Below, one piece after another: positions 345 to 63,761 of a DNA stretch of 64,000 bases. A program made the position numbers and the translations under genes. The notes under the pieces are model-generated. The model did no database searches, had not been told where the DNA came from, and saw only the letters and a program-made list of their open reading frames with translations. Source of the DNA: an uncultured Chloroflexia bacterium (GTDB taxonomy: Bacteria > Chloroflexota > Anaerolineae > Anaerolineales > Villigracilaceae); assembly GCA_963741635.1 (NCBI GenBank), contig CAVUIO010000012.1, positions 195,514-259,513 of the forward strand. The letters are read 5' to 3'. Position 1 is the stretch's first letter. Each line of letters opens with the position of its first letter.

Positions 345-4610
<4,266 letters not shown>

Positions 4611-10596: not shown

Positions 10597-10679
10597 GATG
10601 ACTTACTACTCCTGTCTTGACCTTGTGATTGCGACGATTATAGCACAATCGCGATCGGGTCTTGAATCGCGATTGCCTG

Positions 10680-10752
10680 TGGACCCAGCGAGATTCGAAC
10701 TCGCGACCTTCTCAATGCCATTGAGACGCGCTCCCAACTGCGCTATGGGCCC
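10680..10752 (-). tRNA. tRNA-Ala (anticodon GGC)
   Basis: The reverse complement GGGCCCATAGCGCAGTTGGGAGCGCGTCTCAATGGCATTGAGAAGGTCGCGAGTTCGAATCTCGCTGGGTCCA folds as a cloverleaf. It has the G3:U70 Ala identity pair and anticodon loop AUGGCAU. CCA is not encoded. Confidence 0.95.
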
Positions 10753-10835
10753 ATACTATATTTTATCGTTATGCAGTAAGCAGAAGGCGGGCGGTTTTGC
10801 TTGCTGCCAGCTTTTTTCATGCTACCCGCTGACTG

Positions 10836-10908
10836 TGGACCTGAGGGGATTCGAACCCCTGACCTCCTCAGTGCGATTGAGGCGCGCTCCCAACTGCGCT
10901 ACAGGCCC
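10836..10908 (-). tRNA. tRNA-Ala (anticodon CGC)
   Basis: The reverse complement is GGGCCTGTAGCGCAGTTGGGAGCGCGCCTCAATCGCACTGAGGAGGTCAGGGGTTCGAATCCCCTCAGGTCCA. It has G3:U70 and anticodon loop AUCGCAC. Confidence 0.95.
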
Positions 10909-11598: not shown

Positions 11599-12417
11599 TT
11601 AGAGGGAACGTATCCTGGTAATCAGGCGATTAATTAGGGATTTTTGCTCATCCTTGTTTTGCGAAGGGAACACTCGTGCAGATTGCACCGGAGCTGTCCC
11701 GTCGTCGAGCCGGGTGGTCTCAACCAGACCAGCTTCGAGCAGACCATAAACGATGCGCCGGATCTCCAGGTCATTCATCCGGGTAGCAGTGGCAATCTGG
11801 CGCATGGTATTGGAGGGTTTTATATATGAAACAACCCGCCATTCCTCAACACTCAAATTGACATTCCGGAGATTAGTGCCGGGATGATCCGTAAACTTCA
11901 AGGCCATGTCGAGGCTTGGGATTTCGTCCTGCAATTGCTCCCACTCGCGCATATGCCGCGAGCCTTCGATGATCAGATTCTCAAGGTCCAAGCGGACGCT
12001 GATCCGGTCATCAGGAGGCAACACGTCATTATCGAAGTGGAAAAACCCTTCAACCCATGTGAACAGGCGCTGGATGATATTCGTAAAATGCTGTTGGAGG
12101 TTGGTCAGGATATCTTCTTGTGAAAGATAACCCGCATTGATGAGCAGCAGCCCAAGTTCCTTATCGGATATGTGGGAGGCGTTTTGCTTGATGGATTTAT
12201 ACTGCCCAGAGGAAAGTTTTTTAGCTTTGTATAAAACCTGGGACAGGCTGCCATCCTCCTGGTCTATCTGCGCATAAGACAGTTTCCCCTCTCGAAATGC
12301 GACCTTGGCAGTTTCCCTGGGACCTTCAACCACAAGCGTCCCGGTTTTATTAGCCAGTTTTATAAGGTTTAGTAATTGAGTGATGGTGAAGTCACGCAGG
12401 TTGCCGCGCAGAGCCAT
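11599..12417 (-). CDS. DUF4388 domain protein with a DUF742 (CvnC)-like C-terminal winged-helix region
   Basis: The N-terminus MALRGNLRDFTITQLLNLIKLANKTGTLVVE is the DUF4388 signature. The C-terminus LSVEEWRVVSYIKPSNTMRQIATATRMNDLEIRRIVYGLLEAGLVE resembles DUF742. The gene ends 20 nt upstream of the GTPase gene. Confidence 0.7.
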   Translation of the reverse strand: MALRGNLRDFTITQLLNLIKLANKTGTLVVEGPRETAKVAFREGKLSYAQIDQEDGSLSQVLYKAKKLSSGQYKSIKQNASHISDKELGLLLINAGYLSQEDILTNLQQHFTNIIQRLFTWVEGFFHFDNDVLPPDDRISVRLDLENLIIEGSRHMREWEQLQDEIPSLDMALKFTDHPGTNLRNVNLSVEEWRVVSYIKPSNTMRQIATATRMNDLEIRRIVYGLLEAGLVETTRLDDGTAPVQSARVFPSQNKDEQKSLINRLITRIRSL

Positions 12418-12607
12418 GCAGGTCCTCGATGGCCATCCATAGTGGGTTTAGAATTTTAAATGATTATACATGTAAGGTTGCCATGCGTCAAAGGGTTGGA
12501 ATTCAATGACCGTGGACAGACAAGTTTCATCCGACCGTATCCAAAAGTGCACAGAATTATTCAAGAAGCAGTATAATTTTTGAAAATATCCCGGGAGTTG
12601 ACCAGTG

Positions 12608-12847
12608 ATGAAAATCTCGATCGTTTATTGCACGGTTTGACATTTTACCGACCGGGCCGTGAGCCTGGCAAATGAACTACTGAACCGTTTCGAACCAAAG
12701 ATTGAGAGCATTACTCTTATCCCTTCTGATGGAAGCCGGTTTGAGGTGACTGTCAATAATACCCTCCTTTATTCCAAACTCCAGACCGGGCGGCACGCCA
12801 ATCCAGGAGAAATCCTGGAGTTGTTCACAGAATTCTTGAATAAATAA
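12608..12847 (+). CDS. SelW/Rdx-family selenoprotein (CxxU), in-frame UGA at 12638-12640 read as selenocysteine
   Basis: MKISIVYCTV-UGA-HFTDRAVSLANELLNRFEPKIESITLIPSDGSRFEVTVNNTLLYSKLQTGRHANPGEILELF... is in frame with the track ORF 12659-12847. The UGA sits exactly at the second redox position of the family CxxC/U motif. A GGGAG SD lies upstream, and GTG at 12605 is an alternative start. Confidence 0.75.
12641..12674 (+). promoter_or_regulatory. Candidate bacterial SECIS hairpin immediately 3-prime of the UGA
   Basis: The lower stem is CAUUU/AAAUG, followed by an asymmetric internal loop and an upper stem CCGGGC/GCCUGG (one G-U pair). The apical loop CGUGA contains GU and starts 18 nt after the UGA. 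Confidence 0.45.
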
Positions 12848-12889
12848 CTGCTGGTTAGGTAATTAAATTCGATTTGCATCGAGGTTAGC

Positions 12890-13876
12890 ATGTCAAAAAA
12901 AGGCCGTGTATTTTCCGGCATTCGTCCAACCGGGCGGGCTCACCTGGGCAACTACCTGGGCGCATTCAAAAATTACGTCGCTTTGCAGGACGATTATGAG
13001 TGCGTTTATTGCATCGTGGACCTGCATGCCCTTACGACGGTTGAGGATACGCTTAATCTGAAACAAAATACATACGACCTGGCGGTGGACCTGCTGGCTG
13101 TCGGCATCCGCCCGGAAGAGACCATCCTATTTGTCCAGTCACATGTGCCCCAGGTCACCGAATTGCACACAATCCTTTCCATGGTTACGCCTCTTGGAAA
13201 GCTTACCGATCTGCCAACCTTCAAGGAAAAAGTTCGCCAGAACCCAAACAATGTAAATTATGGTTTGGTTGGCTACCCGGTGCTGATGAGTGCAGATATC
13301 CTGCTTTATAAAACAGACCTGGTTCCGGTTGGGATCGACCAGGCGCCCCACCTGGAATTTGCTCGCGAGGTCGTCCGTTCTTTTAACTTTCGCTACAATA
13401 CCAACGTTCTGGTGGAACCGCAGATGAAGGCCGCCGAAGTTCAGAAAGTTCTTGGCATTGACGGCAAAGAAAAAATGGGGAAAAGCCTGAACAACCAGAT
13501 CGAGCTGGCTGCCACGCCTGAGGAAACCCGCCAGCGGGTTATGATGATGGTGACCGACCCTCACCGCATCAAACGCACCGATCCAGGCAACCCGGATATA
13601 TGCAATGTTTTCACCCTCCATAAAGTTTTTACAAAAAAAGAAGATGTGGAAATGATCAACATCGAATGCCGCCGTGCTGGAATCGGCTGCGTGGATTGCA
13701 AAAAAAGATTAGCCGAGAGCTTGAATGGAGCCCTCGAACCTTTCCGGGTTAAACGTGCCGAGATCGCCGCGCACCCCGACCTGGTGCCTTCAGTCCTTGA
13801 AGATGGAGCTAAACGCGCCAGGGCGATTGCAGAAAAAACCATGCAGGAGGTACGGGCTGCGGTTCAATTGCCCTAA
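12890..13876 (+). CDS. trpS: Tryptophan--tRNA ligase
   Basis: An intact 328-aa ORF with a HIGH-like motif (GRAHLGNY) and KMSKS (KMGKS). Confidence 0.95.
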   Translation: MSKKGRVFSGIRPTGRAHLGNYLGAFKNYVALQDDYECVYCIVDLHALTTVEDTLNLKQNTYDLAVDLLAVGIRPEETILFVQSHVPQVTELHTILSMVTPLGKLTDLPTFKEKVRQNPNNVNYGLVGYPVLMSADILLYKTDLVPVGIDQAPHLEFAREVVRSFNFRYNTNVLVEPQMKAAEVQKVLGIDGKEKMGKSLNNQIELAATPEETRQRVMMMVTDPHRIKRTDPGNPDICNVFTLHKVFTKKEDVEMINIECRRAGIGCVDCKKRLAESLNGALEPFRVKRAEIAAHPDLVPSVLEDGAKRARAIAEKTMQEVRAAVQLP

Positions 13877-13914
13877 TCTCTTATTGAAAGCGATCCTCTT
13901 ATTCCCCATTAATC

Positions 13915-14352
13915 ATGCGTGCATTAATCCAAAGGGTTAAATCCGGCAATGTCTCCGTGGATGGGAAAATCATTGCCAGCATTGGCAGTGGGCTGGTAAT
14001 CCTGCTCGGAATTGGGGGAGGAGATACAGAAGACCAAGCCAGGTCGCTGGCAGAAAAGATCGCAACACTGCGCATTTTCACTGATTCCGATGGGAAGCTC
14101 AACCTGTCCCTGCAGGATGTAAAAGGCGCCGCCATAGTCATTTCCCAATTTACACTTTATAGTGACACTCGCAAAGGACGACGTCCCTCGTTTACGGAGG
14201 CTGCCGACCCCGCGGTCGCTGAGCCGCTGGTGGAAAAATTCGCATCGTATTTGAAGGATTTGGGCTCCCAGGTGCAGACAGGTCGTTTCGGCGCCCATAT
14301 GCTCGTTGGGATAGAAAATGATGGCCCGGTAACGATCATGCTTGAGAAATAA
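13915..14352 (+). CDS. dtd: D-aminoacyl-tRNA deacylase
   Basis: A 145-aa ORF reading MRALIQRV...SQFTLY...GRRPSF...GAHM.V...NDGPVT, the typical Dtd pattern. Confidence 0.93.
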   Translation: MRALIQRVKSGNVSVDGKIIASIGSGLVILLGIGGGDTEDQARSLAEKIATLRIFTDSDGKLNLSLQDVKGAAIVISQFTLYSDTRKGRRPSFTEAADPAVAEPLVEKFASYLKDLGSQVQTGRFGAHMLVGIENDGPVTIMLEK

Positions 14353-15911: not shown

Positions 15912-18900
15912 ATGGAACGCCAAAAGGTTACGATTGATGGGAATGAAGCCACCGCTTCCGTCGCCCATCGCACCAATGAAATCTGCGCGATCTATCCCAT
16001 CACTCCTTCTTCAAACATGGGGGAGTTTGCCGACGACTGGTCGGCAGTCAAACGCAAGAATATCTGGGGTACCGTGCCCCTGGTGGTGGAGATGCAATCC
16101 GAAGGGGGCGCTTCCGGAGCAGTCCACGGAGCACTCCAGACCGGAGCATTAACTACCACTTTCACTGCCAGCCAGGGCTTGCTTTTGATGATCCCCAACA
16201 TGTTCAAGATCGCCGGGGAACTCACCAGCACGGTTTTCCACGTTTCAGCTCGCACCGTGGCAACCCATGCCCTTTCCATCTTCGGCGACCACTCTGATGT
16301 GATGGCTGTTCGTCAGACCGGCTGGGCAATGCTGCCCTCCGGGTCGGTCCAGGAAGCGCATGATATGGCCTTGATCGCCCAGGCTTCCACCTTGGAAGCA
16401 CGCGTGCCTTTCGTGCACTTCTTTGATGGTTTCCGCACCTCGCATGAAGTCGCAAAAATTGAGCAGTTAACGGACGACGACCTGCGGGCAATGATCGATG
16501 ATGATCTGGTCAATGCCCACCGGGCGCGCGCCCTTTCTCCCAATCATCCTGTCCTGCGCGGCTCCGCCCAAAACCCGGATGTATTCTTCCAGGCGCGTGA
16601 GACCATCAATCCGTTCTATACCAAGGTCCCCGGAATAGTCCAGAAGGCAATGGATAAATTCGCCAAGCTTACCGGCCGCGCCTATCACCTGTTCGATTAT
16701 ATTGGCGCTCCGGACCCCGAGCGGGTGATCATCATCATGGCGTCTGGCGGCGAGACTGCTGAAGCCACGGTTCGCTACCTGGTTGAGAAGGGTGAAAAAG
16801 TAGGCGTGGTGCGTGTGCGTCTTTACCGCCCATTTGACGCGCAAGCCTTCCTCAAATCCCTTCCCAAGAGCGTCAAATCAATTGCAGTCCTCGACCGAAC
16901 CAAAGAACCCGGTGCAACCGGTGAACCGCTCTACCTGGATGTGACCAGCACCCTGTTTGAAAACGACCGGCAGGGGATTAAAGTGATCGGGGGACGCTAC
17001 GGTCTTTCTTCGAAAGAATTTACTCCCGCCATGGTCAAGGCTGTCCTGGACGAACTTAAAAAAGCCAGCCCCAAGAACCATTTCGTGGTTGGCATCAATG
17101 AGGATGTAACACATTCAAGCCTGGATTATGACCTCAATTTTTCGGTGGAATATCCAGAGACCGTGCGCTGCCTCTTTTTCGGTTTGGGTTCGGACGGTAC
17201 CGTTGGTGCAAATAAGAACTCGATCAAGATCATCGGCGAAGAGACCAATAATAACGCCCAGGGCTATTTCTATTATGACTCCAAGAAAGCTGGCACCCTG
17301 ACCGTTTCCCACTTGCGCTTTGGTCCAAAACCGATCCAGGCTCCATACCTGATCACCCCCAACACCGCCAATTTTGTAGCTTGCCACCAGTTCAATTTCC
17401 TGGAGCGCTTTGACTTCACCAAGTTTGCCCAACCCGGTGCTGTCTTTTTGGTGAACAGTTTATATGGTCCAGATGAAATCTGGGATAAGTTGCCGCAGGA
17501 AGTCCAAAAGGACATCATCGAGAAAAAATTGAAGTTTTACACAATCAACGCGTATGATGTCGCCGAAAAAACCGGCATGGGCAGCCGGGTAAATACCATC
17601 ATGCAGACCTGTTTCTTCGCGATTTCCGGCATCCTGCCCCGTGATGAGGCCATCGAGCAAATCAAGAAAGCCATCAAGAAAACCTACGGCAAGCGCGGCG
17701 AAGCAGTGGTCATGAAAAACTATGCAGCGGTGGATCAGACCCTGATCAACCTGCACGAGGTCAAGGTACCCGGCAAGAGTAACCAGCACCATCACCCGCC
17801 GCCCGCCCGTGGCTGCAGAAGCGCCCGAGTTCGTCCGCAACGTGCTTGGACCAATGATTGCCTTCGAAGGTGATACTGTTCCCGTTTCCGCCATGCCCCT
17901 GGATGGCACCTTCCCCACCGGCACCACCAAGTGGGAGAAGCGCAACATCGCCCTGGAGATACCCGGTTTGGGAATCCGACCTGTGCATCCAGTGCGGGAA
18001 ATGTGTCTTTGTGTGTCCACATGCGGTCATCCGTCATAAAGTTTTCGACAAGAAATTCCTCGAAAAAATGCCCGCGACTTTCAAGTACATGGACTCCAAG
18101 TTCAAGGAGTATCCCGGCATGGCTTACTCCGTGCAGGTGGCACCTGAGGATTGCACCGGCTGCACTTTGTGTGTGGAAGCCTGCCCTGCCAAGGATAAAA
18201 CCAATCCGTCCCGCAAAGCCATTAACATGGCTCCCCAGCCGCCTTTGCGCGAGACCGAAGCCAGGAACTGGGATTTCTTCCTGTCCCTGCCTGAAATTGA
18301 CCGCACTGCCATCAACCTGGGCACAATAAAGAATTCGCAACTCCTTCAACCTCTGTTTGAGTTTTCCGGAGCTTGCGCAGGTTGCGGGGAAACTCCGTAT
18401 GTAAAATTGCTGTCACAATTGTTCGGCGACCGGTCTATCATCGCCAACGCCACGGGCTGCTCGTCCATTTACGGTGGGAACCTGCCCACTACTCCCTATA
18501 CATTCAACAAGGAAGGAAGGGGACCCGCCTGGTCCAACTCACTGTTTGAAGATAACGCCGAGTTCGGCTTGGGCTTCCGCTTGACATTGGATAAGCAGCT
18601 GGAATATGCCAGCGACATCCTGCCGACTTTCGTGAATGAATTGGGCCAGGATCTTGTGGACAGCCTGCTGAAAGCCGACCAGACTACCGACCTGGGGATT
18701 AAACAGCAACGAGAGCGAGTCGAAATCCTGAAGCAGAAACTCGCCCGGTCCAAGAACCCGCAGGCTCAGAACCTGGTGGCGGTTGCGGATGCTTTCGTCA
18801 AGAAGGCAGTCTGGATCGTAGGGGGCGACGGCTGGGCATACGATATCGGTTACGGCGGGCTAGATCACGTATCTGTCAACCGGTCGAAATGTAAATTTGC

Positions 18901-19472
18901 TGGTTCTCGATACTGAGGTTTACTCGAACACAGGTGGACAAGCATCCAAGTCCACGCCGCGGGGAGCTGTGGCTCGATTTGCCGCCTCTGGAAAGGGTTT
19001 ATCAAAGAAGGACCTGGGTCTGATGGCGATCGCTTATGGATATGTTTACGTAGCCCGTGTTGCCATGGGTTATAGTGACCAGCATACCCTTAAGGCGTTT
19101 CTGGAAGCCGAGTCCTACAACGGCCCATCCATCATCATAGCCTACAGCCACTGCATTTCACATGGCTACGACATGTCCAAGGGTCTGGAACAGCAAAAAT
19201 TGGCTGTCCAATCCGGTCTCTGGCCTCTTTATCGTTTCGATCCACGCCTGGCCGCGGACGATAAGAACCCCCTCCAGATCGACTGCAAAGAACCAACCGT
19301 CTCAGTGGAACAGTATATGTATAACGAAACCCGCTTCCGCATGCTGACCCAAAGTGATGAAGCGCGCGCAGAGACTTTGCTGAAATTGTCTGCTGAAGAT
19401 GCCAAGTCCCGCTGGAGCTTCTATTCCCAGTTGGCTGCCATGCACTACGGCAAATCAACAGAGCAGAAATAA
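15912..19472 (+). CDS. nifJ: Pyruvate:ferredoxin (flavodoxin) oxidoreductase, single-polypeptide type, three frameshifts
   Basis: ORFs 15912-17873, 17809-18039, 17858-18916 and 18897-19472 join colinearly. The product has an N-terminal PFOR domain and two 4Fe-4S motifs (CIQCGKCVFVCP, CTGCTLCVEACP). The TPP domain GGDGWAYDIGYGGLDHV is followed, after a frame change, by the NMLVLDTEVYSNTGGQ segment. Frame changes lie near 17785, 17965 and 18895. Confidence 0.93.
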
Positions 19473-21326: not shown

Positions 21327-21445
21327 CCTTTGGCAATGACCTACTCTCCCAGGCAGTTACCCACCAAGTACCATCGGCGCTGACGAGCTTAACTTCCGGG
21401 TTCGGGATGGGACCGGGTGTACCCTCGTCGCTCAAATCACCAAAG
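21327..21445 (-). rRNA. rrf: 5S ribosomal RNA
   Basis: The reverse complement is CTTTGGTGATTTGAGCGACGAGGGTACACCCGGTCCCATCCCGAACCCGGAAGTTAAGCTCGTCAGCGCCGATGGTACTTGGTGGG...GGGAGAGTAGGTCATTGCCAAAGG. Confidence 0.95.
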
Positions 21446-21521
21446 AGACTTATTCCCTTAGTTGTTGCTGAATAGTTATTGTGTTCGATGTAGGAACAAT
21501 ATCAAGTTCTCCGCACCACGC

Positions 21522-24458
<2,937 letters not shown>

Positions 24459-24743
24459 CACGTGATGCGGAGAAATTGATATTGTTCGGCCTACATCAAA
24501 ATAATTGTCAATTCATCAATAACTATTCAGTTGTCAAGGTTCTGTTTTCGCCGTTGACCGGCGACCGGTGTGCTTCACAATTGTCAAGGACACGGGTTGG
24601 CAGTCAACTAATTTTTTTCGACAAAGCGACCCGGCTCATCGCCGGGCCGCGTCTTCTACCCTTGCGATCTGAGCCATTCTTCTATCGGTATTCCAGGGTC
24701 ACCAACTTCAAACTGTTCCTCATCCTTTCATGCAAAGGCTCAG

Positions 24744-24814
24744 TGGAGATGACGGGATTCGAACCCTGGCCTTCGCCTTGCAAAGGCGCTGCTCTCCCGC
24801 TGAGCTACATCCCC
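24744..24814 (-). tRNA. tRNA-Ala (anticodon TGC) in the 16S-23S spacer; the T-stem looks 1 nt short
   Basis: The reverse complement is GGGGATGTAGCTCAGCGGGAGAGCAGCGCCTTTGCAAGGCGAAGGCCAGGGTTCGAATCCCGTCATCTCCA. It has G3:U70 and anticodon loop UUUGCAA. The 5-prime T-stem strand CAGGG does not pair with CCCGT unless a C is restored (ACGGG). Confidence 0.9.
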
Positions 24815-24836
24815 GAGCACTGCCTGAAATTTCAGG

Positions 24837-24911
24837 TGGGCCTGACTGGACTTCGAACCAGTGACCCCAGTCTTATCAGGACTGTGCTCTAACCAGCTGA
24901 GCTACAGGCCC
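24837..24911 (-). tRNA. tRNA-Ile (anticodon GAT) in the 16S-23S spacer; 8-nt T-loop
   Basis: The reverse complement is GGGCCTGTAGCTCAGCTGGTTAGAGCACAGTCCTGATAAGACTGGGGTCACTGGTTCGAAGTCCAGTCAGGCCCA. The T-loop TTCGAAGT is one nt longer than canonical. Confidence 0.9.
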
Positions 24912-24921
24912 GCCCAGGCTA

Positions 24922-24955
24922 GGCCTTAACAACTGAAAAGTGATAGGAAGCTTAC
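24922..24955 (-). repeat. 3-prime half of the 16S processing stem (inverted repeat partner of 26591-26625), contains a boxA-like CCTTAACAACTG
   Basis: Plus-strand GGCCTTAACAACTGAAAAGTGATAGGAAGCTTAC is near-identical to the reverse complement of 26591-26625. Confidence 0.7.
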
Positions 24956-25035
24956 TTATCGACTTTCACCCACCGCGGGCGAAAGATTTGGGTTGAGCGC
25001 AGGTTGCGTGAGTTCTGACCTTTGCTCGTTTATCT

Positions 25036-26545
<1,510 letters not shown>

Positions 26546-26590
26546 AAAATATCACCCTTGCGGGTGTAAGTTACGGAATAGAACGACAGG

Positions 26591-27876: not shown

Positions 27877-29509
27877 TTACTCCTGGATATCCACGATCTC
27901 GCCGCCCTTTTTCAGGGCCGCGGCTACCATCCCATCTGCTTTGACATCCGCCGGGGGTGGTTGTTTCGCATTTGAGACGACACAACGTAACGGTAAATTT
28001 CACGCCTGCAACATCCGCAATCGCCTTGCGGGTAATATCCATTTGTTCCGGTGATATCCATTTTCGACCGGACCAGTCATTGGCAAAACCGATCAAGAGC
28101 ACACCGTCTTTGATTTCCAGCGGTGGGACGAATTGAGAAGTGCCACCAGGGACGGGCTCTGGGAGTTCAATGATCGCTCTGATTTGTTTCCAGGATTTCA
28201 TTGATCTGATGCAAAAGCGGCAGATGATTTCGACGGGCGGGGTTCCCGCTGTACCGGTTACTTCAATCTCTTCTTTGCCCGAGAGCTTCCCTTCAGGCTT
28301 TTCGCTTTTCTGATTCTGCTCATTCGTGGCTGTACGGTCAGGGGGAGCTGCCTGGTATAAACCTTTGTGAATTCTGTTTCGACTGGTGGTTGTACTGCCG
28401 GGCTTGGATCTCAGGCAGTTTGCCCTTTGCAGGTAAGTCCATCACTTCTGCCAGTGCGAGCTCCAGGGGCAGGGATGGCTGCCAGCCGCCGCGCAGGTCC
28501 ACCGCTGCATTGTTAAAGGCCTTGATCATCTGTAGAACATCCGCATGAGAAAGGTCCGCAGCTTGTTTTTCAGCCTGGATGCGCGTATCGGCTGCCAGGT
28601 CCACCTGTGTTGTGTTTCCCATTTGGATAAGCAGCAGCGCCCGCAGGTAGTCCACCACCTGGCGCGCCAGCAGGCGCGGGTCGGTGCCAGCATCCAGAGC
28701 GGCATGTATCGAATTCATACCGCACTCAGGATTATGGTCAAGAACTGCCTGAACCAAGTCGATGACTGTTTGGCTGGTGGCGGTGCCCAGGACGATCTGG
28801 GTCAATCCAAGCGTGATTTCCTGCCCGGTGGAAGCCATCTGGTCCAGTAAGGAAATGGCATCCCGCATTCCTCCGGAAGATTGGCGGGCGATAAGGGTCA
28901 GTGCTTCTGGTTCGGCAGTGAGTTTTTCATTGGTGGCAATATTCTGCAACTGCCCGACAATATCGTCCATTGGAAGTCGCCTGAAACTCATAACGCTGGC
29001 AGCGGGAGAGGACCGTCGCTGGGATCTTGTGCATCTCGGTGGTTGCCAGGATGAAGATTGCATGTGCCGGTGGTTCTTCGAGCGTTTTCAAGCAGCGCGT
29101 TGAAAGCTGCCGTTGAGAGCATGTGGACTTCATCGATAATATAAACTTTATAACGTGCCTTCGTTGGGGAAAAGTTGATTTTATCGCGCAGGTCGCGCAC
29201 ATCTTCAACGGATGTATTGGAGGCCGCATCGATCTCGATGAGGTCAAGGAAGCGATTTTCGTTGACTGCCACGCAGTGGGCGCATTTGTTGCAGGGACGG
29301 GCTGCCGGATCTTCGTTCAGGCAGTTTACAGCTTTTGCCAATAGCCGGGCTGCGGTGGTCTTTCCTGTACCGCGCGGCCCCGCGAACAGATATGCATGCA
29401 CAACCCGGTTGCCAGTGACCGCATTTCGCAGGGTCTGGACGACATGCTGTTGCCCGACGATTTCATCCCATTTCTGGGGACGCCATTTATTATAGAGAGC
29501 CTGGGTCAT
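27877..29509 (-). CDS. dnaX: DNA polymerase III subunit gamma/tau, four or more frameshifts
   Basis: The N-terminus [53 protein letters not shown] is followed by [35 protein letters not shown] in another frame, then ORF 28338-29063, and a C-terminal segment ending [13 protein letters not shown]. Frame changes lie near 29085, 28985, 28200-28340 and 27985. Confidence 0.92.
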
Positions 29510-32679: not shown

Positions 32680-34560
32680 CTATTCACTTCCTTTTTCTTC
32701 GCTATTAGTTGTGGTCTCACCCTCAGGTTCTTTTGGGCCTGCTTCGGGTTGACCCGGTGTCTGCTGGTAAGCTGCCGTTCCGACTTTCTGGACCACCTGG
32801 CTGAGAGCATCCACCGCCTTGCGAATCGCAGGCTCATCCTCGCCCTCTTTTACCCTTCTGACCTCATCCACCGCTGCCTGGACTTCGGTCTTGACTTCTG
32901 CAGGTACCTTTTCACCCAGTTCATTCAACACTTTTTCTGCGCCGTAAATGGAATTGTCTGCGGTATTGCGGGCTTCGATTAAATCTCGAAGGTGTTTGTC
33001 TTCAGCAGCATGTGTCTCCGCTTCCTTGCGCATACGCTCCACTTCATCTTTAGCCAAACCGGATGAGGCCGTGATGGTGATATGCTGGCTGCGACCGCTG
33101 GCTTTGTCCTGGGCGGTGACCTTGAGGATGCCGTTGACATCGATGTCGAAAGTCACTTCGATCTGGGGGACGCCGCGTGGAGCCGGTGGGATGCCATCCA
33201 GGATGAACTTGCCAAGCGACTTGTTGTCGAGGGCCATGGGTCGTTCCCCCTGCAATATGTGGATTTCAACCTGGGTCTGGCTGTCACTGGCAGTCGAAAA
33301 AACCTGGCTCTTGCGGGTCGGGATGGTGGTGTTTCGTTCGATCTGCGGAGTAGCCACTCCGCCCAGGGTTTCTATGGAAAGGGATAATGGCGTTACATCG
33401 AGCAGGAGAATATCTTTTACTTCCCCGCCCAGTACGCCTGCCTGGATTGCCGCACCTACTGCCACCACCTCATCCGGGTTGACTCCCTTATGAGGTTCCT
33501 TGCCGAAATATTTCCTGACAGCTTCCTGCACCGCTGGCATCCTTGTCATGCCGCCGACCATAACGACCTCATTGATATCAGAGGTTGATAGTCCCGCATC
33601 AGCCAGCGCCTGCTTGAGGGGTGTTAGTGTGCCTTCCACCAGGTCGCTTGTAAGTTGTTCCAGCCTGGCACGCGTCATCGTCATCACCAGGTGCTTTGGG
33701 CCAGATGCATCCGCGGTGAGATATGGCAGGTTCACTTCTGTTTGCATCATCGTCGAGAGTTCGATCTTTGCCTTTTCAGCAGCTTCCCGCAGTCGTTGCA
33801 GGCTCTGCCGATCCTGGCGCAGGTCGATCCCATTTGTTTTCTGGAATTCCTGGACGAAATAGTCAATGATGCGCTGGTCAAAATCGTCTCCCCCCAAGAA
33901 AGTATTACCGTTGGTGGATCGAACCTGGAAAACTCCCTCACCCACATCCAGGATGGATATATCGAATGTTCCGCCACCCAGGTCATAGACTGCAATGATT
34001 TCATTTGCTTTTTTATCCAGGCCATAAGCCAGCGAAGAGGCGGTCGGTTCGTTGATAATGCGCAATACATCCAGTCCGGCAATCTTCCCTGCATCTTTTG
34101 TCGCGTTGCGTTGGGCATCATTAAAATACGCCGGGACGGTGATCACCGCCTGGGTTACAGGTTCTCCGAGGTAGGCCTCGGCATCGCGTTTGATTTTTGC
34201 CAGGATCATGGCAGAAATTTCCGGCGGGGAATATTCCTTGTCGTCCATTTTGACGCGTACATCACCATTGTCGGCAGGTAGCGCTGTATATGGGACGCGC
34301 GGCAGAGTCCGCTGAACCTCGGGGTCTTCGTATTTACGGCCCATGAATCTCTTGATGGAAAAGATGGTGTTTTGTGAATTGACGATGGCCTGGTTGCGCG
34401 CCACCCGTCCCACCAGCCTTTCGTGGTTTTTGTTGATCGCCACCACCGAAGGGACCAGGCGCTCCCCTTCCGCAGACGATATTACAACCGGTTCCGCGCC
34501 CATCATCACCGCTCCAACAGAGTTCGTTGTTCCCAGGTCTATTCCGATTATTTTCGACAT
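32680..34560 (-). CDS. dnaK: Molecular chaperone DnaK (Hsp70), operon copy
   Basis: An intact 626-aa ORF with [18 protein letters not shown] and [10 protein letters not shown]-like signatures. Confidence 0.97.
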
Positions 34561-41738: not shown

Positions 41739-42113
41739 CAGGTCGGCTGGACGGTCGCGGCTTTGCGCTTCGGCGCAGAGTTGAGGAAAGTCCGCACTCC
41801 GCAGGGCACGGCACCGGGGAAAGCCCGGGGTGAGGTAACTTGCCGGATAGGGCCACAGAAATAGACAGCCGCCGCAAGGCGGTCATGGTGCAAAGGCGGT
41901 GTAAGAGACCACCGGCGTCTACAGTAATGCAGGCGGCCAGGTAACCCCCGCCGGGAGCAAGGCCAAACAGGGACAAGACGCGGCTCGCGTCGTTTGAGTT
42001 CCGGGTAGGCTGCATAGAGAGATGACCGTCCAGGTGGAGCGTCGGGAAGGAACTCTTCGGAGCGTAAACCGACCTTCCTTCACCGGACAAAATGCGGCTT
42101 ATAGGCCGGCCTG
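41739..42113 (+). ncRNA. rnpB: RNase P RNA, bacterial type A
   Basis: Plus-strand GAGGAAAGTCCGCAC, ACAGAAA, GGTGCAAAGGCGGTGTAAGAGACCACC, GGTAACCCC, GAGCAAGGCCAAA and ACAAAATGCGGCTTATAG are present. P1 pairing is CAGGTCGGC with GCCGGCCTG. The minus-strand track ORF 41707-42090 is an artefact. Confidence 0.9.
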
Positions 42114-42254
42114 AGGCAATTTTTCTTGGAAATCAACAATTTCCTCATTTTTTATAAGCGATGTCTTCCGTGATTTTCGTTCATGAATGATGGTTGATAA
42201 TATCCATTGATAAATTCTCTTTACCGAATAAACCCGTTTATAATTAATCCTCGG

Positions 42255-43997: not shown

Positions 43998-44391
43998 GGG
44001 GATGACAGGCTTCGACGGAAGAGGCTGGTCCCGAAATGCGAGCCGAGAGGCGCCGACCTCGTAAACTCAGCGCAAACAATCAAGTGCCAACCGCACTTCC
44101 TATGCCGCTATGCCCCTCGCTGCGTAAGCAGTAGAGAGTAAACGGCCGGTCTCTTAGCGAGGTCGCGTCCACCCGTCCCGTTCTTCACCCGGTGAAGGGA
44201 TTGGGCGTCACAATGGTGGAGTGCCGCGCACGACGCCGCTATCTGCGCGAAAGAGGGCCTTCGGGCTCGGGCGGCTGGCTGCAGGTCAATTTTGCCGGAT
44301 GGGTGACCTGCGGCGACAGATCCAACCGGCTACGCTCGTAGATTTTCGAGGGTCAAGTTTTCGGACGCGGGTTCAATTCCCGCCATCTCCA
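43998..44391 (+). ncRNA. ssrA: tmRNA (SsrA), one-piece; tag reading frame 44086-44127 encodes ANRTSYAAMPLAA
   Basis: The 5-prime end GGGGATGACAGGCTTCGACGG pairs with the 3-prime end GGACGCGGGTTCAATTCCCGCCATCTCCA (G3:U70, TPsiC arm). The resume codon GCC at 44086 opens a tag ending LAA-TAA. CCA is not encoded. Confidence 0.92.
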
Positions 44392-44398
44392 CTCAACA

Positions 44399-45428: not shown

Positions 45429-45535
45429 TTTTCCTATGGTTCGTTAACGTTCTTCTTGCAACCTTGCTGTATCCTTACTACCAAAAGTGAATGACACGTT
45501 CGTGCGCGTCTGTATCCTGTTCGAGGAGTATTGTC

Positions 45536-47448
45536 ATGGGAAAAATCATTGGAATTGACCTGGGAACCACCAACAGTGTGGTGGCTGTCATGGAAGGCGG
45601 TCAGCCAACGGTCATAACCACTGCAGAAGGCGGGCGCTTGTGCCCATCGGTTGTCTCTTTCAACAAGAACAACGAACGCCTGGTGGGGCAAACCGCCAAG
45701 CGCCAGGCCGTCATTAATTCTGAAAATACCATTTATTCCATCAAACGCTTTATGGGCCGCCGTTTCGATGAAGTGGAAACCGAGCGCAAGATGGTGCCCT
45801 ATGCCGTGGTTGCCGGTCCTTCAGATGAAGCCCGCGTCAAAATTCCGGTCACCAACCGTGAGTATAGTCCGCAGGAAATTTCCGCCATGATCCTGGCAAA
45901 GCTCAAATCGGATGCTGAAGCCTACCTGGGTCAGCCTGTAACCGAGGCCGTCATTACCGTCCCGGCCTACTTCAACGACAGCCAGCGCCAGGCAACCAAG
46001 GATGCCGGCAAGATTGCCGGTTTGGATGTAAAACGGATCATCAACGAGCCGACTGCTTCCGCCCTGGCTTATGGTCTGGATAAAAAGAAAAACGAAACCA
46101 TCCTGGTCTTTGACCTGGGTGGTGGTACCTTCGATGTATCCATCCTGGATGTGGGCGAAGGCGTCATCGAGGTTAAGTCCACCAATGGCGATACCCACCT
46201 GGGCGGCGATGACTGGGATCAGCGCGTGGTCAACTGGGCGGCTGACGAGTTCAAGAAGCAGGAAGGCATTGATCTCCGCCAGGACCGCCAGGCGCTTCAG
46301 CGCTTACGCGAAGCCGCTGAAAAAGCCAAGATCGAGCTCTCCAGCATGATGGAAACCGAACTCAACCTGCCTTACATTACCGCAGATGCCAATGGACCCA
46401 AGCATCTGGTTCTCAAGTTGACGCGTGCCAAATTCGAGCAGATGACCGATGACCTGCTCAACCGTTGCCGCACTCCGTTTGAAATCTGCCACTGAAAGAT
46501 GCCAGCCTGAAAGCTTCCGACTTGAACGAAGTCGTCCTCGTCGGCGGATCAAGCCGCATGCCAATGGTGCAGGACCTGGTCCGCACGCTGACCGATGGCA
46601 AGGAACCCAACAAGGGTGTCAACCCCGATGAGGTTGTGGCGGTCGGCGCAGCCATCCAGGCAGGTGTGCTGGGCGGTGAAGTCAAGGATATTCTCCTGCT
46701 CGATGTCACGCCTCTTTCACTGGGTGTTGAGACACTGGGCGGCGTAATGACAAAAATGATCGAGCGCAACACCACCATCCCGGTCCGCAAAACCGAGACC
46801 TATTCCACCGCTGCCGACAGCCAGACCGCGGTCGATATCCATATTCTGCAGGGCGAACGTCCCATGGCTACCGATAACATGTCTCTGGGCCGTTTCCGCC
46901 TCGATGGAATCCCCCCTGCTCCGCGCGGTATCCCCCAGGTGGAAGTTACCTTCGATATTGATGCCAACGGCATCCTCAACGTGACTGCCCGGGATAAAGC
47001 CACCGGCAAGGAACAAAAGATCACTGTGACCGCTTCCACCAACTTGAACAAGGATGAGATTGCCCGCAAGGTTGAAGAGGCTAAAAGATACGAAGGCTGA
47101 AGATAAGAAACGGCGCGAGGTCATCGACGCCCGCAATACTGCCGACAATCTGGTTTATCAGACTGAAAAAGCCCTGCGCGATCTGGGCGAGAAGGTTTCT
47201 TCGGAGGAACGCGGCAAGATCGAAGGCAAGATCAACGATCTAAAAGCGGCATCCCAAACTGATGATATGGCGCGTATCAAGAAAGCCACCGATGAACTCC
47301 AAAATATGTTCTATGCGCTCAGCCAGCAGATGTATGCCCAACAGCCCGGGCAAACCCCCCCGCAGGGCGGACCGCAAGCTGGAGGTCCCCAAACGCCTCC
47401 TCCGGCAGTGATGGCGACGTGATCGACGGGGAAGTCCGCGACGCTTGA
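45536..47448 (+). CDS. dnaK: Second DnaK/Hsp70 paralogue, three frameshifts
   Basis: [28 protein letters not shown].. lies in ORF 45491-46495. [13 protein letters not shown].. lies in ORF 46522-47100. The lid domain lies in ORF 47054-47422. The last codons [14 protein letters not shown] are in a further frame. Frame changes lie near 46490, 47090 and 47395. Confidence 0.93.
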
Positions 47449-57768: not shown

Positions 57769-60268
57769 ATGGATTACGCTCGAATCGCCGTAACTGTTGC
57801 TACCTTGATTGGAGAATTTGATTACCAAATTCCCCCCGGTTTGGAGGGGAAAATCAGTTCGGGTCAATTGGTTACTGCCCCATTTGGAAAACAGGTTGTC
57901 CAGGGAATCGTGCTGGAATTAGTCAGCCAGCCAGCCGTGGCAGAGACAAAATCGGTTGTGGATTTGCTTGACCCGCTGCCTGTCCTCACCAGGTCCCAGG
58001 TTTCCCTCGCAAAATGGTTGTCCATTGAGACCCTTTCCCCCCTGGCGGCGTGCATTGGATTGATGTTGCCTTCGGGGTTAAATCAGCAGGCCGACACGGT
58101 TTTTGAAATCAGGGATTCGGAATTCGCAAATCGCAGCTCAGCGGGTAATATCAGTTCTCAAATATCGAGTACCGGATTACGGCTGGTTAAGTTACTCACC
58201 CAGCACGGGCCCATGCGTGGTCGCCAGGTTGATCGACATTTCAGGAACGTGGATTGGCGCAGGGCCGCTCAATCCCTTGTGAAAATTGGTCTGCTTACAA
58301 AGCACTCCATTCTGCCACCCCCTTCGGTTCGCCCAAAATATGTCCGTACCGCTCAGCTCTCGGTGTCTCCCAACATTGCAGAAGCAGCCATGCCCGATCT
58401 CGGAAAAACCCCCGCTACTCTTTCTCGCCGCCAGGCTGCATTGCGTTTCCTGATCCAGGAACTGGCGGATGTGAACGTTTCCTGGGTATATGCAGAATCG
58501 GGCTGCAGTTTGGCTGACCTTCAGGAATTGGCGGATCGCGAGTTAATCGTTTTAAGGGAGACAGAAATTTGGCGTGATCCATTGGAGAAGGTGGAAAGCT
58601 CGGCGGGAGAAGCCGGGTCTCCACCAGAATTAACCTCCTGGCAGTCCTCTGCCTGGGAAAAAATCCTTCAGGTCTTCCGCAACTCATCCCCTTCCTTCCC
58701 ATATCTGCTTTACGGGGTCACTGGCTCCGGGAAGACTGAGATTTATCTCCGCGCTGCCCAGGAATGCATCAGCCGGGGAAAGGAAGCGATTATCCTTGTC
58801 CCGGAGATCGCCATCACCCCTCAAACAGTCCGCCGGTTTTTGGCACGCTTCCCCGGGCAGGTCGGGTTGGTTCATTCGAAGTTGTCCGATGGGGAACGCT
58901 ATGACACCTGGCGGCGTGCTCGTCTGGGACAGTTGAAAGTTATCATCGGTCCGCGCTCGGCTCTTTTTACCCCGCTGCCCCATCTCGGTCTTATTGCGGT
59001 GGACGAGTGCCATGATGGTTCCTATTCGCAAACCGAACCGCCATTTTATAACGCTGTCACTGCTGCACAGGAATATGCACGCATGACCTCCGCGGTTTGC
59101 ATCCTTGGTTCAGCCACACCCACCATCGTTCAACGCTATTATTCCAATTCATCCCAAGTGCCTAACCAGGGGGAAAATCTCCTGCTAACCTTACCCGAGC
59201 GCATCGTGAATCCAAATATGCCGGCAGTCCAGGTGGTGGATATGCGCGCCGAACTCAAGTCTGGCAACCGTGGGATTTTTAGTCAGGAGTTGATCGACGC
59301 TCTCGATAAGAGTCCTTAAAAATGACCAGCAGGCAATTCTTTTTTTGAACCGCCGCGGGACCGCCACCTATGTCTTCTGTCGGGATTGCGGATCACCGTT
59401 GTGCTGTCCGCGCTGTGATACACCCCTCACCTATCACATCAGCGACCTTCCTGCCTCAGGTGGGCATTCCCCCGCTGATTTGCATTGTCACCACTGCGGC
59501 TACATACGCCAGATGCCGCTCAAATGCCCGGTTTGTGGCAGCGACCAGATCCGCCAGTATGGGCTGGGCAGCGAAAAAGTGGAAGCCGAAGTGACCAGCC
59601 TGTTTCCATCAGCCCGCACTTTGCGTTGGGATTGGGAGACCACCCGTCATAAAGATGCCCATGAAATCATTTTGGGACATTTCAGTGCGCACCGGGCGGA
59701 TGTTCTCATCGGCACTCAAATGCTTGCCAAGGGGCTGGACCTTCCCTTGGTTACATTGGTTGGGATCGTGCTCGCCGACGTAGGTCTCAATCTTCCCGAT
59801 CCTTTCGCAGCAGAGCGCACCTTCGATGTGTTGACCCAGGTTTCAGGCCGTGCTGGTCGTTCCACGCTGGGTGGGCGGGTGGTACTGCAAACCTTCATGC
59901 CCGATCATTATGTCATCCAGGCTGCCGCAGGGCACGATTACAATGCTTTCTACACCCGCGAATTGGAATACCGCAGGAAATTGGGGTACCCGCCGTTCAG
60001 TCGTCTTGTGAGAATGGAATTCCGGCACGTTCAGGCAGCCGCAGCAGAATCACAAGCCCGGGATATGGCTGCCAAACTAATAAGCTGGATCGAGAAGGAG
60101 GATCGCCGGGAGACCACGATCATCGGGCCCGTTCCTTGCTTCTTCTCGCGCTTGAACGGTCTTTTCCGCTGGCAGATCATTTTGCGCGGACCCAACCCGG
60201 CCAGTCTGCTGCGTGGGAAAAACCTCGCTGATTGGCGGGTGGAAGTGGACCCATCCTCCCTTTTATAA
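57769..60268 (+). CDS. priA: Primosomal protein N-prime (replication restart helicase PriA), one frameshift near 59325
   Basis: Walker A LLYGVTGSGKTE and the DEAH-like box VDECHD lie in ORF 57769-59319. The Zn-binding region CRDCG..CPRCD..CHHCG..CPVCG and the helicase C domain lie in ORF 59345-60268. Confidence 0.93.
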
Positions 60269-61935: not shown

Positions 61936-63276
61936 TTATGGTGCGGGGGTTGGTGCCGGGCTGAGACTGTAATACACACCCGCTGTTAGCAGGGATGGGT
62001 CGCCCGCCGCCTGGGCAGCCTTCATCTGTGCTTGGCGCGCCAGGTCGGTTGCATTCCGCAGGATGCGCAGGGCTTCATCAGGGTTGTGAAAACCCATGCT
62101 GTTCGCCGAAGATATAAAATCCCACATGTACTGGGCGGTCCTGTGAAGGTTCCTTGCCTGGTCCAGGAGAGCCGGGTCGGATGTCGGGTTGGTGACCGCA
62201 CCCTTGATGGCAGTGATCGCATCGATCAGTGCATCCTCGGTGCTGATTTTTGCTGCGTGTACCGTATCCTGGATCACGCTGACGCGTGCCAGTACCACCT
62301 CCACATCCGTGTGGCATTGACCACATGCCAGCTGCGGGTCCAACAGCGGGCTCATGATGTCGTGGCTGGAATATTTCATCGCACCCTCGCGCAGGTAAGG
62401 CATGTGACAGTCTGCGCAAGCCACACCCGCCCGATAATGGGTGCTATCGGCAGTGAATAGTTCGTAATCCGGGTGGCGCGCCTTCATGATGGGCGTATTC
62501 GTCCCCGGGTAGGTCCAGTCCGCAAAGTTCACATCATCTTCGGATTGGATGATGTTTTCCACCCTCGTCCCGTTGTTCCAGGGCACCGTTAATACTTTAC
62601 TATCCCCTGCGAAGTAATATGTAACATGGCAGTTGGCGCACACTGCCGAACGCATCTGTTGGCGTGTGAAGGTGCGCCAGTCCACACCCTCTGATTGGAA
62701 TGCAGCCTCAACTGCCGGGTTGGTGATAACCAGTCTCATCGTCCCGGCTTCGTGGCAGTTGGCGCAGCCGATCGGGTTGTTGATATTGGGTGTCATATTC
62801 GCAAACAGTTGTGCATCGTAGGCTTCCATTCCCATCTGCGCCCACAGCCCGGGGTTGTCGGACGACTTGCAGGAATAGCAGGTGGCGTGCGTGCTGGCGG
62901 TCACCCGCTTTGTGGCGCGTACGTCGATCAGGGTATTTTGATGACCGCGCGGTTGGTTATATTCCACGCTGAATGGGTAGCCCATGAACAGGAGCACAAG
63001 GCGCGGATCCTCGAGCAGGTATGATTTTTGTGCCGAGCCGCCGTAGGTTGTGGCTGTGTTGTTATTTGCCGTGAGGAGCATGGATGAGTATTCGTTCGGG
63101 TAGTTTATTCCCCACAGGGAAGAATCCGCCTCCAGCGGCTGTATCGTACTGATCGGCTGGATCACGGCTCTCTCCTGTGCCGGTTGGTTCTTCATGAATA
63201 TTAACACCCCGGAAAGTGCAACTGCCAGCAGGATGATTATTCCGATCAGGATGATATTGGCAGGTATTTTTTTCAT
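61936..63276 (-). CDS. nrfA: Pentahaem cytochrome c nitrite reductase (ammonia-forming) NrfA, membrane-anchored
   Basis: There are five haem motifs: CYSCK (the lysine-ligated active-site haem), CANCH, CANCH, CADCH and CGQCH. The N-terminal hydrophobic anchor is IILIGIIILLAVALSGVLIF. The ORF is intact at 446 aa. Confidence 0.93.
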   Translation of the reverse strand: MKKIPANIILIGIIILLAVALSGVLIFMKNQPAQERAVIQPISTIQPLEADSSLWGINYPNEYSSMLLTANNNTATTYGGSAQKSYLLEDPRLVLLFMGYPFSVEYNQPRGHQNTLIDVRATKRVTASTHATCYSCKSSDNPGLWAQMGMEAYDAQLFANMTPNINNPIGCANCHEAGTMRLVITNPAVEAAFQSEGVDWRTFTRQQMRSAVCANCHVTYYFAGDSKVLTVPWNNGTRVENIIQSEDDVNFADWTYPGTNTPIMKARHPDYELFTADSTHYRAGVACADCHMPYLREGAMKYSSHDIMSPLLDPQLACGQCHTDVEVVLARVSVIQDTVHAAKISTEDALIDAITAIKGAVTNPTSDPALLDQARNLHRTAQYMWDFISSANSMGFHNPDEALRILRNATDLARQAQMKAAQAAGDPSLLTAGVYYSLSPAPTPAP

Positions 63277-63761
63277 TTGTCATACACCTCCGAGTCTTGG
63301 TAAGGAGCAAGCGACAGTCCGCGTTGACCATGGGCTGTGGCGCGATGACAATCCCAGCAAGGTCGGTCAAGCGGTTGTGGATCGGCGAGGATGTTCTCGA
63401 CGGTATCCACATGACATCGGATGCAATTTGCCTGGACGATTTCGTCTGTTTGCTGTGTAGCACGGATGGCTGCCGGGTAGATCTTTAAAGTAAATGAAAC
63501 CACATCCCGCATCCCGGAATATCCCTTGTACAAGTAATAGCTGGCAATGTTTTGGTGGGGAAGGTGACAATCTGTGCAGGCGGTAAAGGTGACATGTGCC
63601 GAATGGAACCAGCCCTCGTACTGGGCATCCATGACGTGGCAATTATTGCATGTGGAGGGTTCGTGTGCAAGGTAGGAAGGTGCGTTTGTCGCCCAGCCAA
63701 AAACTCCGAAGGTGAGTATGAGCGCAGTGATCCCGGTTGTGAGAGCCCATCTTGTTTGCAT
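63273..63761 (-). CDS. nrfH: Tetrahaem NapC/NirT-family quinol dehydrogenase NrfH
   Basis: An N-terminal TM segment is followed by four CxxCH motifs (CNNCH, CTDCH, CIRCH, CWDCH). The stop overlaps the nrfA start (ATGA). Confidence 0.9.
   Translation of the reverse strand: MQTRWALTTGITALILTFGVFGWATNAPSYLAHEPSTCNNCHVMDAQYEGWFHSAHVTFTACTDCHLPHQNIASYYLYKGYSGMRDVVSFTLKIYPAAIRATQQTDEIVQANCIRCHVDTVENILADPQPLDRPCWDCHRATAHGQRGLSLAPYQDSEVYDK

Follow-up and report, generated by a model that had tools for sequence, protein, structure and literature searches.

A stretch of 64,000 nucleotides (nt) from an uncultured Chloroflexia bacterium (Villigracilaceae; assembly GCA_963741635.1, contig CAVUIO010000012.1, positions 195,514 to 259,513; hereafter the window) contains a called gene of 62 codons that is the tail of a redox gene of roughly 80 codons. 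This gene resembles that of selenoprotein W (SelW), and an in-frame UGA in it almost certainly encodes selenocysteine (Sec). Insertion of Sec at position 12638 through SelB together with a selenocysteine insertion sequence (SECIS) is highly probable, and would give a thioredoxin-fold oxidoreductase of 79 to 80 residues with the active site Cys-Thr-Val-Sec. The evidence consists of the family membership of the product, the coincidence of the UGA with the redox residue of that family, the presence of the UGA in every one of the 81 genomes compared, between flanks under coding constraint, and a conserved, covarying hairpin at SECIS distance downstream. The gene had first been noticed from the letters of the window alone (the original prediction); that observation is confirmed here, and its interpretation as a selenoprotein is supported.

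The full-length product is a SelW-like protein

The gene lies in frame +2, in which GTG 12605, ATG 12608, TGC 12629, the in-frame TGA at 12638-12640 and a TAA stop at 12845-12847 follow one another. From ATG 12608 the codons are ATG AAA ATC TCG ATC GTT TAT TGC ACG GTT TGA, followed by CAT TTT ACC GAC CGG GCC and then by GTG 12659, at which the called ORF (open reading frame) starts. Translation gives the N-terminus (M)MKISIVYCTV, then the UGA, then HFTDRAVSLANELLNRFEPKIESITLIPSDGSRFEVTVNNTLLYSKLQTGRHANPGEILELFTEFLNK. As the original prediction had it, no frame change is required between 12605 and 12847, and the GTG-started ORF of 62 amino acids (aa) at 12659-12847, the sole product in a mechanical list of ORFs, is only the C-terminal part of this reading. 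It lacks strand β1 and the redox motif.

With the U written as C, the 79-aa product matched the Pfam family Rdx (PF10262) at 71.4 bits over model positions 1-71 of 74 (cut-off 22.6), whereas the 62-aa ORF alone scored 45.9 bits over positions 19-71. The 17 upstream residues therefore contribute about 25 bits. The product also exceeded the cut-off of the NCBIfam model TIGR02174 (CXXU_selWTH; 49.8 bits against 34.2), and these whole-domain matches above curated thresholds place it in the Rdx, or SelW-SelT-SelH, family. It scored 71.5 bits against the equivalog model NF041051 (Campylobacter type), under the 88-bit cut-off of that model, and so falls outside that exact subfamily.

Comparison with Cys-containing members of the family showed where the UGA falls. 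A phmmer search of PDB sequences matched four SelW-related structures, namely 2fa8 (Atu0228, E = 5e-11), 2p0g (V. cholerae), 3dex (SAV_2001) and 2obk (P. fluorescens), with residues 2-74 aligned and E values of 5e-11 to 3e-6. The motif C8-T-V-U11 (numbered from ATG 12608) lies opposite CxxC in all four: YCTV[U]H is opposite YCTQCNW of Atu0228, the general pattern being YCTxC opposite YCTVU, and U is opposite the second Cys in 2p0g, 3dex and 2obk as well. These proteins resemble the window protein in fold, as judged on the orthologue model described below (Foldseek template modelling (TM) score of about 0.65), but have CxxC and lack both a UGA and a SECIS; they share 23-37% identity with it. 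True Cys forms were also found among representatives clustered at 50% identity, with the motifs CIDC (P0155), CLEC (P0156) and CSIC (P0161). They are only about 40% identical, and again U lies opposite the second Cys. Thus, two claims made from the letters of the window, that the gene belongs to the Rdx/SelW family and that its UGA falls on the second redox residue of CxxC/CxxU, hold up in profile, sequence and structure comparisons. A further candidate, P0121, came top of the search of representatives and was rejected as a relative: it is an adhesin-like protein of 1609 aa with tandem repeats, and its score was summed over 14 stretches.

The fold was judged on an AlphaFold model of the orthologue P0002, which is 76% identical to the window protein and served as its proxy (predicted local distance difference test score (pLDDT) 89, predicted TM score (pTM) 0.79). 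The model has the thioredoxin-like β-α-β-β-β-α fold, in the order β1 (residues 3-6), CxxU (9-12), α1 (12-32), β2-4 and α2, so that CxxU stands between β1 and α1, at the start of the helix. The top Foldseek matches were 2fa8, 2p0g, 3dex, 2obk and mouse SelW (2npb). Mouse SelW has the same fold and the same placing of CxxU at the start of α1 (TM score 0.64, probability 0.98) at about 18% identity, and the patterns VYC..U and FEV...SK are common to mammalian SelW and the window protein. In contrast to the window gene, eukaryotic SelW has its SECIS in the 3′ untranslated region, where it works with SBP2 and eEFSec, and no SelB-read hairpin in the coding region (PMC1088965).

The UGA is invariant in 81 species-level genomes

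A scan of species-representative genomes found 351 relatives. Counts were taken from the best 80 of these plus the window, giving 81 species-level genomes that cover 59-92% protein identity. All of the best 80 are Anaerolineae/Chloroflexota save one short contig, which is probably mis-binned. One contig of 1826 nt labelled Minisyncoccia (Candidate Phyla Radiation; L016, JBAVTE010000006.1) is 96% identical in DNA to a locus (L017) in a Chloroflexia metagenome-assembled genome (MAG), so this label is probably a binning error.

In the best 80 relatives the matches begin at query residue 1 to 3, that is, they span the stop. The internal codon was TGA in 81 of 81 sequences, and TGC, TGT, TGG, TAA and TAG occurred in none; TGC or TGT in its place, in read data, was among the findings that the original prediction had said would refute it. 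The terminal stop of the same gene, in contrast, was TGA in 31, TAA in 30 and TAG in 20 sequences, and TGA ends 25 of the 72 ORFs of the window. These genomes therefore use TGA as a normal stop that can be exchanged for the other two, and some other constraint acts on the internal TGA. The TGA-containing gene was present in two cultured isolates, Anaerolinea thermolimosa IMO-1 and Longilinea arvoryzae KOME-1, in which the peptide around the codon reads YCAVUHYTDR, as well as in assemblies from many projects, which rules out an error peculiar to the frameshift-prone assembly of the window.

Selection on the protein extends upstream of the TGA. The Tyr and Cys before it were invariant in all 81 sequences while their codons varied (TAC 47, TAT 34; TGC 68, TGT 13), and such synonymous variation under an invariant Tyr-Cys indicates selection at the protein level. 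Codon-level conservation runs from -8 to +59 around the UGA. Thus, a UGA kept in orthologues, coding conservation on both of its sides and the use of TGA as a stop elsewhere were found together.

A covarying hairpin follows the UGA

Bacterial SECIS elements lie directly downstream of the UGA, and their small apical loop includes a G (PMC1088965, PMC1794560). The window has a hairpin of this kind, seen in the minimum free energy (MFE) fold of 12638-12690, with a stem that begins 11 nt after the UGA and an apical loop CGUGA 18 nt after it. The hairpin was compared, without gaps, across the 81 orthologous sequences (12638-12691 and its counterparts). In its upper helix 93.3% of cells were paired, against 23-40% when the 3′ partner was slid by 1-3 nt, and pair 18-28 showed a compensatory change from G-C to A-U. 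In the outer stem only 56.3% of cells were paired. The original prediction had described a bipartite hairpin at 12641-12674: its upper stem-loop is conserved with covariation, while the outer stem, which would make the hairpin bipartite, is not conserved. A conserved, covarying stem-loop with a small G-containing loop was thus found for the upper stem and not for the lower.

Every orthologue had at least five of six pairs either in the register of the window or in one shifted 4 nt toward the 3′ end, in which columns 19-24 pair with 30-35 around the loop GGUCU or AGUCU. The window register alone was present in 58 sequences, the shifted register alone in 5 and both in 18; none was without a hairpin. 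The loops of both registers mostly contain GU. Pairing in the shifted register was equally complete (93.5% of cells), with compensatory double changes in four of the six pairs, and the observed covariation was matched by none of 500 shuffles. For example, GCUGCC/GGCAGC in some sequences corresponds to GCCAUC/GAUGGC in others, through paired Ala→Ile and Ala→Met replacements. The 18 sequences with both registers suggest a stepwise migration of a coding-region SECIS, and if the predicted SECIS role is right, the 81 orthologues show such an element shifting its register by 4 nt while staying functional.

The codons that make up the hairpin are also restrained in their synonymous choices. Codon entropy at +4 to +9 (Asp-Arg-Ala-Val-Ser-Leu) was about half that of the same residues elsewhere in the gene, for example 1.08 against 2.05-2.23 bits for Arg and 0.64 against 1.7-2.1 bits for Leu. 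Compared with synonymous recodings, the hairpin of the window was marginal (z = -1.99, p = 0.045), and across orthologues the mean z was -1.45, with p ≤ 0.05 in 43% of sequences. A covariance model built from the 81 hairpins found the Rdx site as its sole match in the window (68 bits; the next had E = 3.9).

The SECIS of E. coli fdhF offers a point of comparison. Its SelB-binding upper stem-loop begins about 11 nt after the UGA and has an apical loop with GU. Both hairpins lie in coding sequence after the UGA, the stem of the window begins at a matching distance, and the fdhF loop is resembled by the loop GGUCU of the shifted register. The window hairpin differs in showing no sequence homology to the fdhF element, no evident bulged U and no Rfam match, and its binding by SelB is putative.

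Initiation and proposed mechanism

The start of the full-length gene is probably GTG 12605 or ATG 12608. A start codon (ATG, TTG or GTG) was present at codon -11 in 66 of the 81 orthologues and otherwise mostly at -10, and a Shine-Dalgarno-like motif stood upstream of the start in 79. The GTG at 12659 used by gene callers lies within the hairpin loop. A start codon occupies its position in only 52 of 81 orthologues, the remaining 29 having GTC, GCC, ACC, GTT, ATC, GTA or ATT there. Homologues thus disagree with GTG 12659 as the true start, which the original prediction had named as the alternative. Upstream, a perfect TATAAT was found in 63 of 81 orthologous loci, 21-67 nt (mostly 26-34 nt) before codon -11, and the corresponding promoter-like sequence of the window (Table 1) is a candidate promoter.

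We propose that the mRNA would begin at the promoter near 12548-12577 and be translated from GTG 12605 or ATG 12608. At UGA 12638-12640 the ribosome would meet the hairpin at 12650-12669 just downstream, and Sec would be inserted without termination. At the N-terminal end of helix α1, a selenylsulfide couple of Cys and Sec may then carry out thiol-dependent redox chemistry, as proposed for SelW.

Table 1. Positions in the window of the predicted SelW-like gene and its associated features.
Feature	Position	Strand	Remarks
Predicted full SelW-like (Rdx family) selenoprotein ORF, 79-80 aa	12605..12847	+	Start at GTG 12605 or ATG 12608
CxxU redox motif, TGC ACG GTT TGA (predicted Cys-Thr-Val-Sec)	12629..12640	+	Aligned with CxxC homologues
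In-frame UGA, putative selenocysteine codon	12638..12640	+	TGA in 81/81 orthologues
62-aa ORF of gene callers	12659..12847	+	C-terminal 78% of the protein
Promoter-like TGCACA, 18-nt spacer, TATAAT	12548..12577	+	-10 box 12572-12577; consensus scan 10/12
Shine-Dalgarno-like GGGAG	12593..12597	+	7 nt before GTG 12605, 10 nt before ATG 12608
SECIS-like hairpin	12650..12669	+	Stem 12652-12657/12663-12668 plus G12650-C12669; apical loop CGUGA 12658-12662
Outer (lower) stem, 12641-12645/12670-12674	12641..12674	+	In MFE fold; not conserved
trpS (tryptophan-tRNA ligase)	12890..13876	+	TIGR00233, 297 bits; 42 nt downstream of the SelW-like gene

Weighing Sec insertion against the alternatives

Several observations weigh against Sec insertion. 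Genes for tRNA-Sec, selA, selB and selD were absent from the 64-kb window and from 1.2 Mb of orthologous flanks. As a single sequence, the hairpin fold was unremarkable (-10.4 kcal/mol, z = -0.85, with 38 of 200 dinucleotide shuffles as stable), and the 81 sequences are related, so that the shuffle statistics overstate their independence. A cmscan of 12400-13000 against Rfam (E ≤ 10) matched no family and gave only a chance snoRNA hit. One orthologue, P0001, reads TTA (Leu) at the codon that is otherwise TGA. Finally, the assembly of the window has several frameshifted genes, and single-base accuracy can therefore not be assumed from the window alone.

The TTA of P0001 (locus L081:408-650; ENA ERZ27294411, k141_1012879) is on a metagenomic contig of 1152 nt, where the trpS call is likewise fragmented, and reflects a sequencing error or else the decay of this copy. 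Curated bacterial SECIS models are lineage-specific, and the missing Rfam match does not argue against SECIS function. The significance of the hairpin comes from the comparative evidence, the direction of which was consistent in every test.

Searches for Sec machinery and for other selenoproteins in the window and related loci added little. Regular-expression scans for the Sec motifs of FdhA, SelD, Prx, Trx and GrdA and for SelA/SelB signatures returned only EF-Tu and noise. When a second selenoprotein was sought in the window and the 80 loci as an in-frame TGA beside a Cys and open on both sides, the 1,463 hits were essentially noise save for the Rdx genes; among the TGA-ended ORFs of the window with a long in-frame extension, 159 were listed and none was credible. 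The TGA at 17871 in the gene for pyruvate:ferredoxin oxidoreductase (PFOR) was considered as a readthrough site and rejected, this being a frameshift instead.

Evidence for the machinery in this lineage comes from published work. Single-cell genomes of Anaerolineales contain Sec-specific elongation factors and Sec-containing formate dehydrogenases, and A. thermophila UNI-1 has SelB although no Sec-containing dehydrogenase is annotated in it (PMC4959059). The TGA-containing gene occurs in an A. thermophila MAG (L077) and is thus a plausible client for the orphan Sec elongation factor reported in that species (PMC4959059). The organism of the window presumably has SelB and tRNA(Sec) too, with Sec as the inserted residue, and the full gene marks it and most Anaerolineae as likely Sec decoders.

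The alternative that survives best is that the UGA is translated, though not as Sec, either by hairpin-promoted readthrough with near-cognate tRNA-Trp or tRNA-Cys or by lineage-specific recoding. The lack of Sec machinery in the window and the orthologous flanks speaks for it, and the tight linkage of the gene to trpS, its neighbour in 79 of 80 loci, would fit a Trp-related mechanism. However, the codon falls on the exact catalytic Cys/Sec position of a family with established Sec forms (PMC1088965, PMC1794560), and TGG, TGC and TGT never replace TGA in 81 genomes, which is difficult to reconcile with Trp or Cys as the intended residue. The hairpin geometry and its G-containing loop are moreover as in bacterial SECIS elements, and SelB has been reported in the order (PMC4959059). 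We consider this alternative very unlikely. Wholesale reassignment of the codon (genetic code 4 or 25) was rejected, as TGA terminates 31 of the 81 copies and TGG or GGN codons never stand at the internal TGA.

It is less likely still, and only barely credible, that the 62-aa ORF is a gene in its own right, with the 10-11 codons upstream forming an untranslated leader or a short leader peptide that ends at the UGA. A product of 60-64 aa does appear in the mechanical ORF list and in more than 100 database entries, and the 62-aa piece passes the Pfam threshold by itself (45.9 bits). Yet the callers' GTG is missing in 29 of the 81 orthologues, and an ordinary stop would be expected to vary between TAA, TAG and TGA, like the true terminator (31 TGA, 30 TAA, 20 TAG), whereas the internal codon is TGA throughout. 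The residues upstream of the UGA, including the invariant YC, fit positions 1-18 of the Rdx profile and add the 25 bits noted above, and the truncated product would be without β1 and the entire redox motif. The separate-gene reading is thus largely refuted.

The least tenable explanation, of negligible probability, is that the TGA arose through an error in sequencing or assembly or marks a pseudogene of a Cys-form Rdx gene: the assembly does show reading-frame breaks (PFOR in three ORFs; fragments of dnaK, priA and rpoC), but 80 independent genomes, produced by different projects and with different assemblers, have the same TGA, two cultured isolates included, no orthologue has TGC or TGT, and purifying selection persists on both sides of the codon.

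The gene heads a cluster with trpS and dtd

Downstream of the SelW-like gene lies trpS, and no terminator-like site was found between the two, so they are probably co-transcribed. The arrangement is widespread: trpS directly follows the SelW-like gene in 79 of 80 Anaerolineae loci, and dtd (D-aminoacyl-tRNA deacylase) comes after it in 70. The gap to trpS, 42 nt in the window, has an estimated median of 7 nt and is typically below 50 nt, with some pairs apparently overlapping. Positions 12605-14352 of the window and loci L001-L080 together look like a conserved operon whose first cistron contains the UGA.

This arrangement allows a regulatory idea that we think very unlikely. With the selW-like gene as the promoter-proximal cistron, selenium- and SelB-dependent passage of the UGA, in competition with release factor 2 and near-cognate tRNA-Trp, could tune the translation of trpS. 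If so, the Sec codon would serve as a sensor in the regulation of the ligase whose tRNA is the chief misreader of UGA. In a weaker version, the gene may encode the main or only selenoprotein for whose sake Anaerolineae such as A. thermophila retain the Sec machinery.

A divergent ORF of 272 aa (11599-12417, minus strand) lies immediately upstream of the SelW-like gene. It matches no NCBIfam model, was detected in 29 of the 80 loci, and shares 93-94% identity with its counterparts in loci L001 and L003.

Relation to known selenoproteins

Among bacterial selenoproteins, SelW-like CxxU proteins form an established family, recognised since 2005 (PMC1088965, PMC1794560). They outnumbered every other family in the Sargasso Sea data, and a count of 2006 gave 10 in sequenced bacteria and few homologues with Cys (PMC1088965, PMC1794560). 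The window gene agrees with the bacterial SelW-like selenoproteins described by Zhang, Gladyshev and co-workers (PF10262, formerly PF05169) in several features. Like them, it encodes a thioredoxin fold of about 80 aa with an N-terminal CxxU, it has an in-frame UGA followed by a hairpin in the coding region, and Sec forms outnumber Cys forms among its close relatives. It differs in its lineage (Anaerolineae), in its selW-like/trpS/dtd context and in the two registers of the hairpin. Our literature search found no papers that describe the SelW-like family in Anaerolineae.

As the family is already known and the names exist in NCBIfam and JGI, this is no new system. It does not change what is known of how Sec decoding works, and would not surprise a selenoprotein specialist. 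What is new lies at the margin, namely that the gene is present class-wide in Anaerolineae and systematically truncated there, that its SECIS-like hairpin has two registers within one orthologous group, and that it stands first in a conserved selW-like/trpS/dtd cluster.

Consequences for annotation

The main value of the result is in annotation repair, as the gene is truncated class-wide in public annotation and the annotated product is without its active site. More than 100 protein clusters in databases are fragments of 60-64 aa named 'selenoprotein W-related' or 'Rdx family', which bears out the expectation in the original prediction that standard gene callers would truncate the gene. NCBIfam and JGI already label these fragments as SelW-related. 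At least 351 species-level genomes carry a relative.

Nearly all close relatives in the protein databases are such fragments. The few full-length entries, many of which come from ENA metagenomes, have W at the Sec site, apart from one with L (P0001), and W is what translation of the TGA with genetic code 4 would give. Entries with CxxW may therefore serve as a cheap flag for hidden selenoproteins.

Other features of the window

PFOR (15912-19472, plus strand) is split into three overlapping ORFs, 15912-17873, 17858-18916 and 18897-19472, which match model positions 2-622, 677-977 and 985-1166. Locus L003 has a single ORF of 1208 aa here, and L001 is also broken. Indel errors in a long-read assembly probably account for the breaks in PFOR; otherwise the frameshifts would be real.

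Other genes are likewise incomplete. The rpoC ORF (2317-3318, minus strand) covers only model positions 247-537 of 1147; a second copy of dnaK (45491-46495, plus strand) covers positions 1-313 of 625, with a full dnaK at 32680-34560; the priA ORF (57769-59319, plus strand) covers positions 2-471 of 788; and a piece of dnaX lies at 28338-29063 (minus strand). The fragments of rpoC, dnaK, priA and dnaX are consistent with frequent frame breaks in the assembly.

Several RNA genes were also found. A complete rRNA operon (21328-26546, minus strand) comprises 16S, tRNA-Ile, tRNA-Ala, 23S and 5S; the RNase P RNA is at 41739-42117 and the tmRNA at 43998-44394 (both plus strand), and tandem tRNA-Ala genes (GGC, CGC) are at 10679-10908 (minus strand). 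Near the end of the window (61936-63761, minus strand), an NrfA-like ammonia-forming cytochrome c nitrite reductase of 446 aa is encoded next to a NapC/NirT-type cytochrome of 162 aa, a pairing which, judged from the genes present, suggests respiratory nitrite ammonification in this Anaerolineae genome.

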